DNA from: Cystobasidiomycetes sp. EMM_F5 | Lineage: Eukaryota | NCBI GenBank assembly: GCA_051047955.1 | Contig: JBPGPT010000014.1 | Coordinates: 186,001-250,000 of the forward strand | Length of the DNA stretch: 64,000 bases | Direction of reading: 5' to 3' | Part shown: piece by piece, positions 33,051 to 59,268 of the stretch | How the letters are laid out: each line of letters opens with the position of its first letter | Numbering within the stretch: position 1 is the stretch's first letter | Translations under genes and position numbers: made by a program | The notes under the pieces: model-generated | Told to the model about the DNA's origin: nothing | The model's database searches: none | Seen by the model: the letters and a program-made list of their open reading frames with translations, nothing else

Positions 33051-36000
33051 TCATCGTTTTTCTGAAGCAGCCGGGATGTCTGCAACCTCTCCTGACGACT
33101 CGGGTATAGCGCTCACACTAGGGCCGCGAGAGTGACCACGTGTCGAGGCAGCGGTCTGATGCAAGAATTGCTGAGCCAGCGGGTCGGAAGAGTCCGTGTC
33201 TGGATGAAGAACAGCTTCCCCGCGATACAGAGCAGTGGACGACCGGCTCGGTTCCATGGCAGCGGGGTTGGCAAGACTGCCAGAATCTGGCCGCCAACCA
33301 CCGCCAACGGCAGATGCCACAATACTTGGCAACATTGCCATCAATGTAGTCGGATAGATATTGTCCTTCTCCAGCTTCCTGAGTCGAGAACGCTGAACGA
33401 TACTCGATGAACGAAGGCGCCCACCGCGGACACGTGAATATACCCGAAGATTGTCTCGAAGCTGCTCGAATGGTGCATCCCATTTGGCTTCGTCTGCAGA
33501 TGGGTCGGCCACGGGAAGGGCATTAGGATCTGGGAGTAGCTTGAATCTGATCATGAACCTCTCGAACGGTGCCGTAGGGAGTAGTCGGATGAAGACGCCA
33601 ATGGGGAGTGAAATCAGGCCGATGATGATGCTGATTGCCCATAGATTGCCGCCGATTCTAGTCACTTGGAATGCTCGACCGCCGACGTTGACAATCAAAG
33701 CTTGACCGCCAACCACTGTATGATGTGTCAGAAAGTACTCGGTGCGAGTCATGGCATCAATAAGGCCAACTTACTGATTGCAAAGATGGCCATGAAGTAA
33801 TAATTTCTCCAGAATCCACGCAGAACGTTGAGGCGACGATCCAGTCTTCGCGCGTTAAGCATGTTGAAGATTTGGCAGAATACGAATTGGTTGAAAATGA
33901 GCGTGTTGAGGTCGTCTGCTTGTTGAATGCGTTGAAACTCGTCCGTAGCGTTATATCCCAAGATGGAAGAACCGGCGAAATGCAGCACTAGGGCCACGGT
34001 CAACTGGAAAATAGATTGACCGATAATCATTCTACAGCGGAACAGTCAGCTTTGGCTAAGCTTGCACGAAACCGTAGTGCACTTACTTCCACATGTCGGC
34101 AGATATGAGCGGAGCCATGGACCGGTCTGGCTTTCTGTCGAGGTTTTCGGGATCGGCAGGGTCCGTTGCTAAAGCCAAGGCTGCGAAAGTATCCATGATC
34201 AAGTTGACCCAAAGTAGTTGTACAGCAGTAATGACTGAAGTTTCCTCATCGGACGCCACAGCACTGATGAACGTGAGCAAGACAGCCGTAATGTTGACGG
34301 AAATCTGGAATTGCAAGAATTTGCGGACAGAGTCATTTACGCATCGGCCCCAAGAGATGGCGGTGACGATGCTTGCGAAATTGTCGTCCATCAGAATGAT
34401 GGCAGAGGCCTCCTTAGCGACTGGTGTACCGGCGATCCCCATTGCGAAACCAACATTGGCGGCCTTCAGTGCGGGAGCATCGTTTGCACCGTCTCCAGTG
34501 ACGCCGACGACTTCACCTAATTCACGCAAAGCACGAACAAGATCCGCCTTGTCGGTTGGAGAGCAGCGTGCCAAAACTTGTAGACGGGGTGCAATAGCCT
34601 TCTGTCCGGCTGGTCCTAGTGCGTGGAAAGCTGGACCCTCCATGATGATTCCGCCGGTCGTATAGATGCCGCACTGCTGTGCTATTGAGCTAAAGAAGAA
34701 TGATAGTCAGACATTCGGGGCGTAAAGCCAAAGACAGATAGACATACCGAGCGGTCAAAGGGTTGTCGCCAGTGCACATCTTGACTGCTACTCCTGCCTT
34801 CTGGGAAGTCGCAACCGCCTTGATTACACCTTCTCGGAGCGGGTCTTCTATCGCAGTAACACCGATGAGCGTGAGGTTGTTGCAGATCTGCTCATACGGG
34901 ACAGAGCCCTCGACGAGAGGAAGAGGTGGCCATTGTTCAAAGTCACGGTAGCAAATGGCGATTGTTCGAAGTGATTGATTGGCGTAAAAGATGATTGTTC
35001 TGTCTGTGTTGGTTCGGCTCGCTTCATCAAACGGAACGACTGTTATATCTTGTGCCGCTGCGCCATCTTCTAAGCAGACGACGTGATGCGTCGACTTTTT
35101 GAACAGAATTTCAGACGCTCCTTTGATATAAACACGGTACTTGTTTCCATGCTTGACCGCACATGCCATGTATTTACGGGCCGAGGAGAAGGGAAGCTCG
35201 TCGACAGTCGGTATACTGTCTCTGACTTGTTGCATAGGTTGCCAGCCACGGTCTTTAGCAAATTGAAGCAGCGCGACGTCGGTCTTGGAGCCTGTAAAGA
35301 TGACCTTGTTATCTTCCTCAGCCTCGTGGGCCGAGCTGCACTTGGCGATGGCCTCATTGAGAAGAGTTTGTAGCGATTGAGACATGGCTTGGTTAATTTC
35401 CGTTGCATCTCGCGAGAAATCCTTGGCAGGGGTGTTGAGTGCAAGTGTAGACTCCGTATTGGCATTGCTACGCTTCGTTTCTTCGAGACGTTCGGCAAAC
35501 TTGAGGTGCACACCAATGGCGCCAGCTACGACGGTCATCTTATTTTGCGTCAACGTACCAGTCTTGTCGGTGCACACCACTGTTGCAGTTCCCATTGTCT
35601 CGCAAGAGCTGAATTGTCGGACCAGCAAATTCTGTTTTGTCATTCGGGTAGTCGCAAATGCAAGTGCCAGAGTGACGGCCAATGGCAGACCTTCGGCTGT
35701 GTCGGACGCAGATCATTAGCATATAAATCATCGTCGGGAAATCGGCACTACTTACGAACGGCGACGACTACCACTGTGACCGCGATGATGAGAATATGAA
35801 TAAATGATTGAGCCTTCTGATCCGAGGTGTAGCCTTCTCTGCCGAGTTGAGTGAAGAAGCGAATCATCAATGCTAAAAAGAGGAGCAAGCCCGCGCCAGC
35901 ACCAGCGTACGCGATCCAATTGGCCAGCCGATTCAGCTTGAGCTGGAGCGGAGTTTCCGTGTCCGTTTCACCGCGAAGTTCGACCATGATTTTACCGATA

Positions 36001-37750: not shown

Positions 37751-38162
37751 TGCGTTGCAGATCAGAGGCTCAGCGCTGTGTTAGCTGTGCTGACAGTCTG
37801 CCAGATGGCTGTCCTGTGACCCTTTGATCCTGACGCTGGCTTGCCGACCAGCTTGCGATGGAGAGAAGAGAGCAAACCTCAGAGTCCGCCTACGCGTCCA
37901 CTGTGCACTCCGTTGCCGCCCAAGACTCTGCGCATTTGTCGCTCCAAAAGTCTTGGAATCTCGTAAACGACGTCGCTGCCAAGGCCCACCAGACAAATCC
38001 CGATCATCTGTCTTGGGGAGCACAGCCTAAAGTGGTGGCAAATCTATGACAAATTGTGACTGATGGCAGAGTCGCGGAGTCGCGTCAAAGAAGCAGCGAA
38101 GGCGAATCGAGAACAACTGTATTGCACAATGACGGAGCTACCTGCAAACTGCGTACTGTCGA

Positions 38163-50167: not shown

Positions 50168-51093
50168 GGTTCACGTGAATATCATTTATTATCAGGATGA
50201 GGGTTGGTTTCAAAGGCAAACGTGGGCGGTTGTTGCTTTTTCGGTAACGCCGCGCCTCAAATTGGACAAGCCAACTGCATCCCCTTGACATGCACAAACA
50301 GCAGAATTAAGCAAGGTATACTGAAGAAAATACGAGACAGCGTAACATAATCATAGCGTAACACAATCACATTTGTAATGGCCGATACTGTATATACATA
50401 TATATAACGAGCGGTGGGAAACGGAATGACATAGAAAGTAAGCCAGAATCTGCAGGAGGCTTGCACTACCGCATGGCCTTTATTATCTCTCTCTGTGTCC
50501 CTGGGATGGCCGCCGCCGTCCTCGCAGAAACAAAGCCTGAGAAGGTGAACCACCTGTTGAGCGAATACTGCATCGGCACAGGTCGCTTCACCATGCTGTA
50601 AAAGCCATCACATCATCAAGAGGCTCCACACGTTCATCCCTTTCTGCATTGCATTTGTAGGAACGTAGAAGAGGCCTTGACTTCCCGCTGCCAGTGGTGT
50701 GTTCGAACTGCGCAAATCGCAGGAATGGAAGCAAAGGGCGAAGCAGATGAGATACCCGCACAAACTCAAGCTGAGATGTTTAAGAGAAGAGGAATTGGAT
50801 GTTGGGTTGTCCCAGAAAAGATCTCATTTTGTAACGAGATGGTCAGCTGCAGCCCGCCCCACAGGACTGGTGCTCGGGGTAGGTAAAGAGTCGGAGCCAC
50901 CTCAGCCGGATATCCTGATAAGCAGAGTACAATGACCATCTACTATGTGCACGGTCCTCTCGAAAGGGCCCGAGGAGAAATTCTTCCCTCCAAATTTTTC
51001 CGGCAAAGGAAGTTTGGGGGGACGAAAGAGAGCCCTTCTGCCTATCCTCGGAGCCACGTCCAGTCCATACCGCAAACGACACGCTCAAGCACA

Positions 51094-52855
51094 ATGGTCA
51101 GTCCACTTACGCACGACACCCACCCGTAGTCGACGCCAAGTCATCCGCCTGTCCGCGACTTCGACCCGAAAATGCCAGCATAAAATGCACTCGGTGCCCT
51201 GTGCAAATACCGTTCAAGCTTCGATAATGCCGGCAGCAGTCATCATGTCTCTCTGCATAGACAGATACGGGCGTCGTTCCTGAGGGGCGGAGCAACGGGA
51301 GATGCCATGCAATTGGTTCTTTCGCGACGCTTGCTGAGGGGAATCGACCTTAATGTGAAACGAGGGAGAGGTTCGAAGCCTGATGTCGGTATTGCGAAAG
51401 CAGTATTCGGCAGTATGATGGCATAGAACCCACTTAGAGCATCAAGAAAGGATAGTTGTGTGTGCATCTTCCCGTTGCTTGCGCTTCTTTCAAGAAACGT
51501 ATGCATCGGGCCTCATCTCATTGTCACCAATGGGTGGAGGTATAGATCACTGCTATGGTGTACGAAGCAAGGAAGCGGATCTGTATCTGCTGCACTGGGA
51601 GGCACTTTGTGTCGTGGCTCGGGAAGAATGGTCGGACGGCGAAAGCTTGGTTGGCTGCGGGATGGGCGTCGGCTCACATAACGAGGCTTAGTTGCTTCGC
51701 ATCGTGCCATGCCTTGTCTATCCTGTTGCTGACGAGTGCTTCGTCTCTGCCTCTCTTTTCTCCAATTACCCAACCTTCTGCACCACTATCTGCTCCATGA
51801 ACCCCATTTCTGCAACGACGCCTGTCTTTGCGACCATCTTTTCCACTACCTCTGCTACTGATATACAGGCACCAGCAAAGAAGACCGCAAAAGCTCCAGC
51901 CCTCGGCAAAAAGCCAGTCAAGAAGACGACAAACCCATTGTTCGAGAAGAAGCCAAAGAACTTTGCTATTGGTAAGAGCAGACCTTGAAATCATGTATGC
52001 GAGTACTCACGATACCTTGCTTTCCGCAGGCCAGGACATTCAGCCCACTCGCGACTTGACCCGCTTCGTCAAGTGGCCAGAGTATGTCCGCCTTCAACGC
52101 CAGAAGGTAATCCTCAACCAGCGCCTCAAGGTACCGCCCGCCATTGCCCAATTCTCGTCAACTCTAGACAAGAATACCGCCACCCAACTTTTCCGTCTCC
52201 TCAACAAGTACAAGCCAGAGACCAAACAAGAGAAGAAGACTCGGCTTGGCAAAGAGGCTGAGGCTATCGCTGCCAACGATGGTAAGAAGCCAGAAAAGAG
52301 CGAGAAGAAGCCTCTGTTCGTCAAGATGGGTCTCAACCACTGCGTTGCCTTGATCGAGGTCGGTTTGAAAGACAGCAGTTTCAAGGGGAGGTACATCGGA
52401 CTGATTCGTTCGCTTCTCCAAAACAGAACAAGAAGGCCAACCTCGTTATCATTGCCGATGATGTTGACCCAATTGAGCTCGTCGTCTTTGTGCCCGCTTT
52501 GTGCCGCAAGATGGGCGTCCCTTACGTGATTGTCAAGAACAAGGCTCGTCTCGGTACGGTAGTACACAAGAAGAAGGCTGCAATCCTGACCCTGCAAGAC
52601 GTTCGCTCTGAGGATTCGTCCGAGCTCTCCAAGCTCGTTTCCGCTGCCAAAGCCAACTACTTAGACAAGTTTGAAGACCATCGCAAGCATTGGGGAGGCG
52701 GAATCCGGGGGAATAAATCGAAATCTATGATGCTTAGGCGTGCAAAGGCAGCGGGTATGTTGTCATTGCGCTCCACAATTGTCGTTTCGTTTGTCTTGAT
52801 TTTCTGACTTTTCGACTTTTCAGGTACCACGGTGGCCGCGCTCGAGAAGATCTAA
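51094..52855 (+). CDS. RPL8: 60S ribosomal protein eL8 (L7a/L8)
   Basis: [33 protein letters not shown]-like [16 protein letters not shown]; start inferred as CACA-ATG|gtcagt with intron 51097-51868 (start less certain than identity). Confidence 0.93.
51255..51745 (+). ncRNA. Putative structured intronic RNA element with kink-turn-like motif in RPL8 intron 1
   Basis: Nested complementary segments with sense-strand G-U pairs, GAAA tetraloop hairpin, GCCTGA/GATGGC motif; read by eye, family not recognised. Confidence 0.6.
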
Positions 52856-57600: not shown

Positions 57601-59268
57601 ACTCTACAATGAGTCGTTCAACGACGCTCGTAAAGATCTTCGAAGCCGGCCGATTGATGAGTGCGGATCCAGCACGCTACAAGGAATGGGAACAGAATAC
57701 TTACCCCCATTTTCGGAATAGCAACGTCAATTGGTGGGCAGACAGCAAAGTCGGGACTGGTAGGGACTCTTCCTTCAAGAGCATGCGGGTATTGCCACAA
57801 GACAGGACGAATTACAGTCCATCCTGTCTCATCTCTGCAAGCGATAAAGCACAGGACAACCTACCCCAGGATGGTCTTGAAAATGCAGAAGACAAGCATT
57901 TTCAGATCACCAACAATGTCCGCTCTAGTCGTGCTCCAGAGAGCGATGACGATGACGACCTACCGGATTTGCCAACGATAGCGCGCAACACCACTAAAGA
58001 TATCAAGGTTGGAAAAATCGTTGCCCGTGCAAAACCGCGACTATCAAGCTCGCCTGCCTTATCACGCCAAAGTTTGGAGGCGAAGTCGACTTCGAAAGCA
58101 GCGTCAACGGGAAAGGATGTGGTGGTCATCGATCTTGACGGCGACGATGACGTCGACGATGTCCACCAATCTGACCGGTAAGCAGTTCGAAGTCATACGA
58201 TTGCGATCATTGCTAACGTGCGTGGCGTATCAATCTAGCTCGAAGCAACCCAGAAATTGGTCGTCGCCAAGACAAAGGAAAGCAGCCAGTCCACGTTCGC
58301 AAGACAGAGCATCCGGCAGCGGGCCCAGACCTCCCTCGCCCGGGCTGGCGGCCATCCCGCAACTATCGGAGGCGGATCTCCCTTCCCCTTTAGTCGCCCA
58401 ACAGTCGAGCGCTCTTCGGGTCATCGATGTTCATGAAGACGACTCGCCGCTTGTTCCGCTGCGCCGTAAGGCGGTTAAGCGAATAATCGCAGACGACGAA
58501 AGTTCGTCACCCAACAAGGTTGCCAGAATAACGGGACCCGTTCCTGCGAACGATGTCAAACACAATGCGACGCAAGTTTCTGCGCAGGTCATTCGGAGAA
58601 AGCTTGTGCGAGCATCCGACATGCCAGAAGCAAAAACATCGGAAGTCAAGATGGGTCAACCCCGAAAAAGGAAGGCTAAGTTGCTGCCTGGCGATGCTTG
58701 CCCCTTCTTCGATCTTCGGGCTGTCAACTCTGATGATCCAGACAGCCTGACAGACTCTGATGGTGATGATGAAGGACCGCCAGAAACGTAAGTTTGGTTG
58801 TTGCCTGCGTTGATCGAATTCATCGTTTGCTAAATATCCATCCGTACAGTCATGGAGACCGTCGCTTTGTTGCCAGTGATGGTATGGCGTCAGATCCTGC
58901 TGACATGTCAGCCTTCTATCGCGAAAGTCTCATGTCACAAGCAAATCATCGCTTTCAGCACGATGTAAAGCGTCCGGGTGCCTACAAGATGGAGAACAGG
59001 TGAGTGGGGGCAATCACCATTTTGCTATTAGTCCTGATTACCTTGCCCAGAGCACGCAGGCGTAGATCGATTGTGAGATCGGCAGATAACTCTCCAGGGG
59101 ACGCTTCGCAGTGGCAATTCGGCAGTTTTGTTGTCGGTGAGTGTCTAGAACATAGTCTGTGTCTTTCTCCGCCAACCTGTTTTGAGCTCAGATGATGATG
59201 ACGATATTATATACGAGGATGAAGGTGATGACCTCTCAATAGCAGATAAATTCACATCGGAGACGTAG
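54656..59268 (+). CDS. MPH1: FANCM/Mph1 DEAH DNA helicase
   Basis: LRKYQ, LPTGLGKT, TPQT, DEAHRA, LTATPG, HPKM, ATSIGEEGLDI, QRAGRTGR; long acidic disordered C-terminus. Confidence 0.93.

Follow-up and report, generated by a model that had tools for sequence, protein, structure and literature searches.

Does the message of a ribosomal protein of the L7Ae family carry, within its own first intron, a structure by which the protein could limit its own splicing? The question is raised by a stretch of 64,000 nucleotides from Cystobasidiomycetes sp. EMM_F5 (contig JBPGPT010000014.1, positions 186,001 to 250,000 of the forward strand; hereafter termed the window, to whose numbering all positions refer), which contains the gene of the ribosomal protein eL8 with a hairpin resembling a kink-turn (K-turn) in its first intron. 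Ribosomal proteins must be made in balance, and few of the underlying feedback circuits of eukaryotes are understood at the RNA level, with that of L30 being the classic case. The K-turn of yeast L30 includes the 5' splice site, and binding of L30 blocks splicing, while in archaea L7Ae, the counterpart of eL8, recognizes itself in a K-turn located in the leader of its own mRNA. As judged from the comparison of orthologous introns, the hairpin of the window forms an arm of a multi-helix RNA structure that is conserved among fungal eL8 pre-mRNAs in their first intron, and since this conserved fold wraps the branch point and the 3' splice site, hairpin and fold probably constitute a sensor that limits eL8 splicing.

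The eL8 gene and the hairpin in its first intron

The first-pass annotation of the window had described a box C/D-type K-turn in the pre-mRNA of an L7Ae-family protein, which it took to be eL8, and proposed that free eL8 or Snu13 binds there to alter splicing. The assignment of the host gene is borne out by its fourth exon (52427-52753), which matches the Pfam family PF01248 (L7Ae/L30e/S12e family) with an E-value of 3.8e-18 and finds its closest solved structures in the PDB among L8/eL8 chains of 60S subunits (E 2e-44); the protein is a eukaryotic, fungal-type eL8, alias L7a or L8. A contig of run X4 links, with 0 differences to the window, positions 51077-51095/6 to 51868/9-51972 and continues into exon 3, and because it joins the ATG directly to 51869, intron 1 is truly spliced and the hairpin resides in eL8 pre-mRNA as had been claimed. 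Reading from the ATG into the intron encounters a stop after 11 codons. The resulting gene organization is as follows:

51094-51096, forward strand: start codon of eL8, the entire coding part of exon 1 (contig of run X4)
51097-51868, forward strand: intron 1, 772 nt, GUCAGU...ACAG, containing the whole element (spliced contig of run X4)
51866-51868, forward strand: 3' splice site CAG of intron 1 (spliced contig; first AG past 51735)
51869-51971, forward strand: exon 2 (spliced contig; alignment to exon 2 of relatives)
51972-52029, forward strand: intron 2 (gene model)
52030-52358, forward strand: exon 3 (gene model)

The letters between 51378 and 51422 of the forward strand agree exactly with the earlier description. 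GCC (51378-51380), U81 and the dinucleotide G82-A83 are followed by a hairpin of 12 bp (51384-51412), which has a single bulged U and is capped by a GAAA loop, and the 3' half continues with GUAU (51413-51416), G17-A18, U19 and GGC (51420-51422). In K-turn terms, the hairpin, formerly called the stem, forms the canonical (C) helix and GCC/GGC the non-canonical (NC) helix. The letters hence place GA opposite GA, followed by one U.U and three G-C pairs, with a loop of four instead of three nucleotides. Both helices of a simple K-turn are present, as the 12-bp C hairpin and an NC helix of U.U plus three G-C pairs, and the tandem GA/GA is in K-turn register (G82 A83 facing G17 A18) as judged by letters, sheared geometry aside. 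RNAfold retains the hairpin and adds an outer stem of GGUUC (51370-51374) and GAACC (51426-51430). The resulting fold of 51370-51430 has an energy of -23.6 kcal/mol (z = -3.66, with 0 of 200 shuffles as stable), compared to -11.0 kcal/mol (z = -1.10) for the reverse strand. Within a 151-nt context the hairpin is kept in both the minimum free energy (MFE) and the centroid structure, with the full stretch being unremarkable (z = -0.64).

How often such a motif would arise by chance was estimated with a descriptor that demands GA...GA, six or more base pairs in the C stem, three or more in the NC stem and a loop of 3-4 nt. It finds 12 matches on the forward and 8 on the reverse strand of the window, compared to 7.0 +/- 2.9 per strand in block-wise dinucleotide shuffles. 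Taken alone, the motif is thus at chance level, which weighs against regulation by eL8, and its significance therefore rests only on the comparison with orthologous introns. The four runs aligned to the window provide six short contigs, which leave large parts of the intron uncovered and contain 0 variant letters within it, so that no covariation is obtainable for the window's own hairpin. Two of these contigs, covering 51338-51563 with the K-turn arm (run X1) and 51605-51821 (run X2), are identical to the window and lie entirely within intron 1; they may originate from DNA, pre-mRNA or stable intron pieces, the kind of run being a guess.

A conserved fold around the splice signals of fungal eL8 introns

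Relatives were collected as the best 80 of 330 confirmed stretches, comprising eL8 loci from metagenome contigs (denoted by L numbers) that were fetched by the exon-3 peptide and share 63-91% identity. Some are long genomic contigs and many are pieces of 1-1.7 kb, which lack the intron at the exon 2-3 junction and thus derive from RNA. A CUCNAUGAY sequence precedes exon 2 in 66 of the 80 loci and L012 contains the variant UUCAAUGAC, resulting in 67 loci that hold intron-1 sequence; the other 13 do not, nine of them reading as spliced from ATG to exon 2 and four being cut short. Two conserved blocks, UAGAG and CUC-NAU-GA, are found in all 67 (UAGAG in almost every locus) and are separated by 30-90 nt in compact introns, by 244 nt in L001 and by 358 nt in the window. 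There, the second block falls into 15 nt that do not differ between the window and six related contigs. The parts of the element in the window are listed below:

51333-51341, forward strand: GCUGAGGGG, candidate 5' strand pairing with the C-run 51802-51805, with CCCACUUAG at 51430-51438 as alternative local partner (a weak assignment)
51370-51430, forward strand: hairpin arm P2, closed by GGUUC/GAACC, with a 3x3 internal loop GAA/AUA and holding the K-turn (RNAfold; position of the covarying P2)
51378-51422, forward strand: K-turn-like core, NC helix GCC/GGC plus U.U, GA 51382-51383 opposite GA 51417-51418, C helix 51384-51412, loop GUAU 51413-51416 (sequence, RNAfold)
51434-51440, forward strand: UUAGAGC block, whose GAG (51437-51439) is the 5' strand of a 3-bp helix with CUC 51793-51795 (conserved, RNAalifold)
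51450-51456, forward strand: GGAUAGU, 5' strand of helix H3 (pairs with ACUAUCU 51785-51791)
51729-51733, forward strand: CUGAC, likely branch point, enclosed by H3 and GAG/CUC (inferred; GCUGAC also found 5' of the AUGA block in L001, L007 and L008)
51785-51791, forward strand: ACUAUCU, 3' strand of helix H3 (part of the invariant 15-nt block)
51793-51805, forward strand: CUC-CAU-GA-ACCCC, the conserved CUC-NAU-GA block and K-turn-like junction strand (regular expression; window and L012 are one-letter variants)

K-turn hairpins recur upstream of the first block. A strict search required GA...GA, three or more base pairs in the C stem, three or more in the NC stem past the 3b.3n position, and a loop of 3-4 nt. 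Among 46 non-redundant loci, 24 contain such a hairpin in the 120-nt stretch preceding UAGAG, compared to 6.5 +/- 2.4 in dinucleotide shuffles (maximum 12, n = 200) and 4 of 46 in a reverse-strand control. The typical copy has the layout NC-GA-(G..hairpin..C)-RAU-GA-NC, with NC strands that vary by locus (ACGCA/UGCGU, GCGCA/AGCGC, UCUGCG/UGCAGA, CGAAAGCA/CGCUUUCG, GAGCCUUU/UAAGGCUC and UGGGAACCU/UGGUUCCCG) and 3-nt loops of the sequence GAU, AAU, GCU or CGU in the copies counted as real. Hairpins equivalent to that of the window are found in L001/L002, L011, L029, L012 and in a main group of relatives. In L001/L002, which are the closest relatives covering this region, a K-turn hairpin with a 3-nt loop and unrelated sequence is located 49 nt before UUAGAG.

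A covariance model built from ten short hairpins was used to scan both strands of 65 loci (148 kb) at E-values up to 1 and yields 18 matches, all 18 on the sense strand and 8 of them not part of the seed, whose ten-sequence alignment shows an invariant GA/GA. In the 18 aligned hairpins, 93.7% of cells are paired and both partners have changed in 6 of 7 pairs, with a covariation score of 0.665, which is not reached in any of 500 shuffles (0.263 +/- 0.036) and drops to at most 0.18 when the partner strand is slid. Since the alignment was fitted to the model, these values are biased towards the structure; that the covariation signal is nevertheless real is supported by the slide control together with the count from the independent descriptor. 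At the equivalent place, a K-turn hairpin with compensatory changes is conserved in many fungal eL8 introns, the conservation of the GA pairs having been named as a check in the first-pass annotation. What was described as a hairpin is real, and at the same time only one arm of a much larger conserved structure.

The organization of this structure is best seen in the main group, where the K-turn hairpin is followed, in 5' to 3' direction and after 1-4 nt, by GCUGG, P2, R-Y-U-A, GAG, the CUC bulge, the 5' strand of H3, an inner hairpin with the branch-point consensus GCURAY on its 3' side, the 3' strand of H3, U, CUC, AAU, GA and CCAG|CC, with the bar marking the start of exon 2. P2 is variable in sequence but maintained in pairing. 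In the window, the corresponding P2 arm lies directly 5' of CAC-UUAGAG, the place taken by the covarying P2 hairpin in other fungi. From an unguided alignment of 21 main-type sequences, RNAalifold predicts the GAG/CUC helix, which is invariant in 21 of 21, and five H3 pairs with compensatory changes. In L012, GAG/CUC is replaced by GAA/UUC in a compensatory manner. H3 covaries across groups, as in CGAGG/CCUCG, CGAGAG/CUCUCG, GGUUUUG/CAAAAUC, GAUAGUA/UACUAUC and others. The strand preceding P2 pairs with the letters following NAU-GA and covaries likewise, as illustrated by GCUGG/CCAGC (extending to 8 bp in L071/L079), CAGG/CCUG (L033), AAGCAG/CUGCUU (L042) and GGGG/CCCC (L053/L056). For P2 and the helix adjacent to NAU-GA we resorted to anchored parsing, since a MAFFT alignment of the intron ends was too gappy; the resulting counts are lower bounds because a wrong P2 was picked in L041, L048, L052, L059, L065 and L067.

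For the window, the analogues of the helix formed by GCUGAGGGG would be GCUGG/CCAGC of the main group, GGGG/CCCC of L053 and L012 and GGAGG/CCUCC of L001, with the partner of ACCCC being uncertain between GGG at 51364-51366 and GGGG at 51338-51341. In the MFE structure of the 151-nt context, GCUGAGGG (51333-51341) instead pairs with CCCACUUAG (51430-51438), which would hide UUAGAG and compete with GAG/CUC; this pairing is a possible alternative conformer predicted by folding. GCUGG of the main group is also able to pair with CUAG of the UAGAG block, a local pairing that covaries in two groups only.

In its letters, the strand CUC-NAU-GA facing U-A-GAG corresponds to a K-turn whose 2n position is U, a substitution known from Kt-23 (PMC5061560). 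With P2 emerging on the other strand, this arrangement, as read from its letters, is neither a standard K-turn nor a published k-junction. It resembles the k-junction described by the Lilley laboratory (PMC10573300) in being a three-way junction built on K-turn features, here with NAU-GA facing the A before GAG/CUC and P2 on the other strand. The two differ in that the k-junction contains its extra helix opposite the loop and keeps both G.A pairs, whereas P2 is placed between the NC strand and the U-A step and the second pair would be A.U. A true k-junction was thus rejected, because the extra helix emerges, relative to the A, on the wrong side. As a separate observation, L063, L064, L033, L040, L070 and L049 contain a box-C-like GUGAUGCC right after UUAGAGC and a branch-point CUGA immediately before CUC, which could form a second C/D-type K-turn using the branch adenosine; in L063/L064, a plain 6-bp helix GUGAUG/CAUCGC accounts for the letters of GUGAUGCC.

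It is the branch point that these covarying helices surround; in most lineages, the CAG of the 3' splice site is paired as well, namely by the first helix, which joins a G-rich strand to the letters following NAU-GA. In compact loci, the branch-point consensus is mostly found 9-16 nt before CUC, and in the main group it abuts H3 and the first AG follows 4 nt after GA, so that the helix beside NAU-GA contains the 3' splice site. In the window, the branch-point candidate is also enclosed by covarying helices and is located 136 nt from the 3' splice site, with a pyrimidine-rich, AG-free stretch between them (51737-51866), and the K-turn hairpin itself overlaps no splice signal. A second CUGAU is located only 7 nt before the AG of the 3' splice site.

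Transcripts that retain intron 1 appear to be common. In 41 loci the 3' part of intron 1 is present with exons 2 and 3 being contiguous, seven of which are long genomic contigs of species without the downstream intron and one of which is a false call (L077), leaving 33 short contigs. The position of intron 2 is common to the window and 26 loci. Intron-1 sequence is kept while the downstream intron is removed in a contig of run X3, which retains 51816-51868 (the last 53 nt of intron 1) and lacks intron 2; together with the window it forms a matched pair, as do L042/L046 and L064/L063. Contigs with complete splicing are also available for the same species or for close ones (L003/L004, L008/L009, L012/L013 and L046/L047). 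In the single species represented by L042, L046 and L047, the RNA contig L046 keeps the structured part and lacks a GUAAGC...UAUAG piece of the genomic L042, and L047 is fully spliced; in this species, the element may be part of an alternative, poison-type exon.

Proposed feedback of eL8 on its own splicing and competing explanations

We lean, if only slightly, towards the view that eL8 binds the K-turn of intron 1 and locks a fold that blocks splicing, thereby regulating its own message. The element is a K-turn in intron 1 of the gene of an L7Ae-family protein, within a structure that involves splicing signals, namely the branch point and, in the main group, the 3' splice site. In the proposed circuit, eL8 made beyond its uptake into assembling ribosomes would bind the K-turn and may additionally bind the K-turn-like NAU-GA/UA strand pair of the junction. 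Binding would stabilize the fold and hide the branch point and the 3' splice site, which would hinder recognition by U2 and of the 3' splice site and lead to retention of intron 1. Owing to the stop after 11 codons, the retained transcript would be unproductive and is likely degraded. The circuit would, by analogy, constitute negative feedback similar to that of yeast L30 and archaeal L7Ae. Of the autoregulation suggested in the first-pass annotation, the link to splicing has gained from the conserved fold at the branch point and 3' splice site and from the abundance of intron-1-retaining transcripts, whereas the motif by itself does not exceed chance and its copy in the window is atypical.

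A bolder version, which we advance only tentatively and regard as rather doubtful in its full extent, holds that filamentous fungi possess a sensor for eL8 in two parts, dating back hundreds of millions of years, in which the canonical K-turn hairpin acts together with a new K-turn-like three-way junction clamping the branch point and 3' splice site, and which would represent the first case of splicing feedback by eL8 through a K-turn. The new junction type forming part of this tentative proposal would consist of the NAU-GA strand facing U-A, with a third helix separating the NC strand from the U-A step. In such a sensor, the G-rich strand may switch between the local YUAG and the CCAG of the 3' splice site, akin to the expression platform of a riboswitch.

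Several observations weigh against regulation by eL8. It is the host gene alone that points to eL8 as the protein partner, and the hairpins resemble box C'/D' and U4 K-turns, which are bound by Snu13. In 22 of the 46 non-redundant loci no strict hairpin match is found; these include L039 and L065 as near-misses detected by the covariance model and L026, which is one of its seeds. The hairpin appears degenerate or lost in L052, where AA replaces the second GA, as well as in L059, L075 and L076, where none is readable. As all loci without a strict hairpin nevertheless retain the junction, the hairpin may be dispensable. Several of the 24 strict matches (L025, L033, L070, L042/L046 and L053/L056) are probably due to chance. 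One-to-one orthology of the hairpins is not proven because their position relative to the junction differs, with the hairpin residing within P2 in the window, L011, L029 and L012 and 5' of the junction in the main group. The junction part may not be a protein site at all, since L7Ae did not fold two k-junctions that were tested (PMC10573300). The 33 short contigs attest retention only if the respective species has an intron at the exon 2-3 junction, which is unproven for most. Finally, the window copy departs from the consensus, as its GUAU loop has 4 nt in the MFE structure instead of the three defining a simple K-turn (PMC5061560), the pair adjoining the loop is U-A instead of G-C, and it was not detected by the covariance model R1 of the commonest hairpin form.

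The main rival, which we consider unlikely, is that Snu13, the homologue of 15.5K, binds the K-turn and that a snoRNP-like or K-loop RNA-like particle slows the excision of the intron irrespective of the eL8 level. Consistent with this possibility, the main-group hairpins can be read as D'/C' boxes (..GA-hairpin-GAUGAUGC / AAUGAUGC), and a preprint (10.64898/2026.08.03.742641) reports thousands of K-loop RNAs in human and mouse introns that are bound by 15.5K and inhibit removal of the intron hosting them. These mammalian RNAs are defined by terminal C/D motifs, whereas the K-turn described here sits inside a hairpin and is coupled to a junction with splice signals. The element furthermore stays at one intron of eL8 across proteins that are 63-91% identical (67 of 67 loci being eL8, as expected from a sampling of eL8 loci), which a generic Snu13 particle would leave unexplained, and it is this persistent tie to the eL8 gene that, within the limits of such sampling, leads us to favour eL8 over Snu13.

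Less probable still is a constitutive splicing aid without protein sensor, which would join a distant branch point to the 3' splice site or fix the choice of the latter, with GA/GA serving as architectural kink. The 136-nt AG-free distance of the window and the looping out of about 330 nt by GAG/CUC and H3 would suit such a role, and K-turns are also known as purely architectural elements, as for example in riboswitches (PMC5061560). In the compact main group, however, branch point and 3' splice site are close together from the outset (about 20 nt), and both are buried in the fold instead of being presented by it. The retained intron is moreover intron 1, and the link to the gene of a K-turn-binding protein would be coincidence.

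We find it improbable that the window hairpin is a chance look-alike and that in this lineage only the UAGAG/CUC-NAU-GA junction is conserved. The chance-level frequency of the motif, its 4-nt loop and its escape from R1 would be compatible with such an accident, as would the fact that among close relatives only L001/L002 cover this part of the intron. Yet the hairpin is positioned 18 nt before UUAGAG, exactly in the P2 arm, which folds unusually well; L001/L002 contain a K-turn hairpin of different sequence 49 nt before UUAGAG, and L011, L029 and L012 harbour theirs inside P2, while a shuffled 120-nt stretch scores in about 14% of cases (6.5/46).

Finally, reading the motif as the internal D'/C' boxes of a box C/D small nucleolar RNA (snoRNA) that is encoded in the intron and guides methylation was rejected and is very improbable: although CUGA, hairpin and AUGAUGG follow the order of D' and C', Rfam provides 0 matches at gathering score, 0 at E up to 10 (50900-52100) and 0 at E up to 1 (15 related loci), a search for RUGAUGA within one mismatch across the whole of intron 1 returns only the motif's own at 51415 and thus neither a second box C nor terminal boxes C and D spaced by 70-130 nt, in line with the earlier note on their absence, the CUGA sites of the intron are found at 51280, 51334, 51380, 51729 and 51858, with the next one 3' of the motif being 310 nt off at the branch point, and no guide of 10 nt or more is conserved among the loci compared, since the stretches directly upstream of both GA strands vary.

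Relation to known systems

The L7Ae family supplies the archetype of K-turn-binding proteins, and in yeast its member L30e recognizes a K-turn within the pre-mRNA encoding it (PMC5061560). The eL8 case shares with yeast RPL30 that a ribosomal protein of the L7Ae family has a K-turn in the transcript encoding it and that control is proposed at the step of splicing; it differs in that the K-turn takes the form of a hairpin far inside the intron and connects to a junction at the branch point and 3' splice site instead of the 5' splice site, with binding of eL8 being predicted. Compared to archaeal L7Ae, where translation is controlled in a 5' leader devoid of a multi-helix junction, it is splicing that is proposed to be controlled in eL8.

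The element may already have been catalogued. Li and Breaker (2017; PMC5640933) described an orphan motif termed rpl7-l8-s3 in introns of L7/L8 genes of 25 filamentous ascomycetes, whose genera include Neurospora and Aspergillus, and the fungal eL8 intron element is probably the same motif, as judged by location and general description and not by sequence. The words kink, k-turn, L7Ae and L7a are absent from that paper and no mechanism is proposed for the motif, Gao, Jones and Rivas (2021) do not mention it, and scans of the window region and 15 related loci return no Rfam 15 match to it.

In Caenorhabditis elegans, rpl-7A (eL8) undergoes homeostatic alternative splicing coupled to nonsense-mediated decay (Takei et al., 2016; PMC4937301). 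There too, the balance between productive and unproductive splicing of the eL8 message responds to eL8 expression, and the alternative intron is unusually conserved among nematodes. The organism is an animal, and the available part of that report describes neither an RNA element nor a K-turn and does not state a direct action of eL8. The 15.5K-bound K-loop RNAs (10.64898/2026.08.03.742641) are similar in that intronic GA motifs of the C/D type suppress excision of the host intron; in the available part of the preprint they appear as mammalian small processed RNAs with terminal C/D motifs from thousands of genes, with no link to eL8 or a junction.

In a literature located largely outside subscription journals, we found no published proposal of a splicing feedback by eL8 through a K-turn. 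From the comparison of loci, we regard the element as real and conserved and the putative circuit as one of a known kind, represented by L30 and the self-recognition of L7Ae, of which the eL8 case would be new. With eL8 being the counterpart of archaeal L7Ae, the archetypal K-turn binder, the proposed mechanism is concrete and easily testable. If true, it would provide a function and a structural reading for the orphan fungal motif catalogued in 2017, a molecular lead for the eL8 splicing feedback of nematodes, and an example of a protein-bound RNA fold that hides the branch point and the 3' splice site instead of the 5' splice site. If the two-part sensor existed, it would amount to a protein-operated RNA switch at the 3' end of an intron.

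Further observations concern other parts of the window and its relatives. Weak matches of the R1 model elsewhere in the window, at 37905-37933 (reverse strand), 33771-33800 (forward), 58941-58966 (reverse) and 58416-58450 (reverse) with E-values of 0.68-2.3, are at the level expected by chance. L044, L045 and L050, which have a different exon structure, contain GGGUAUGAUGGA about 115 nt before UAGAG, which resembles the K-turn strand GUAUGAUGGC of the window. An AUG at 51797, part of the conserved CUCCAUGA block, shares the frame of exon 2 and is followed by 24 codons without a stop (51797-51868); it was considered as an alternative start and rejected, since the same AUG is out of frame in L001 and L005 and its frame in the window thus looks accidental.

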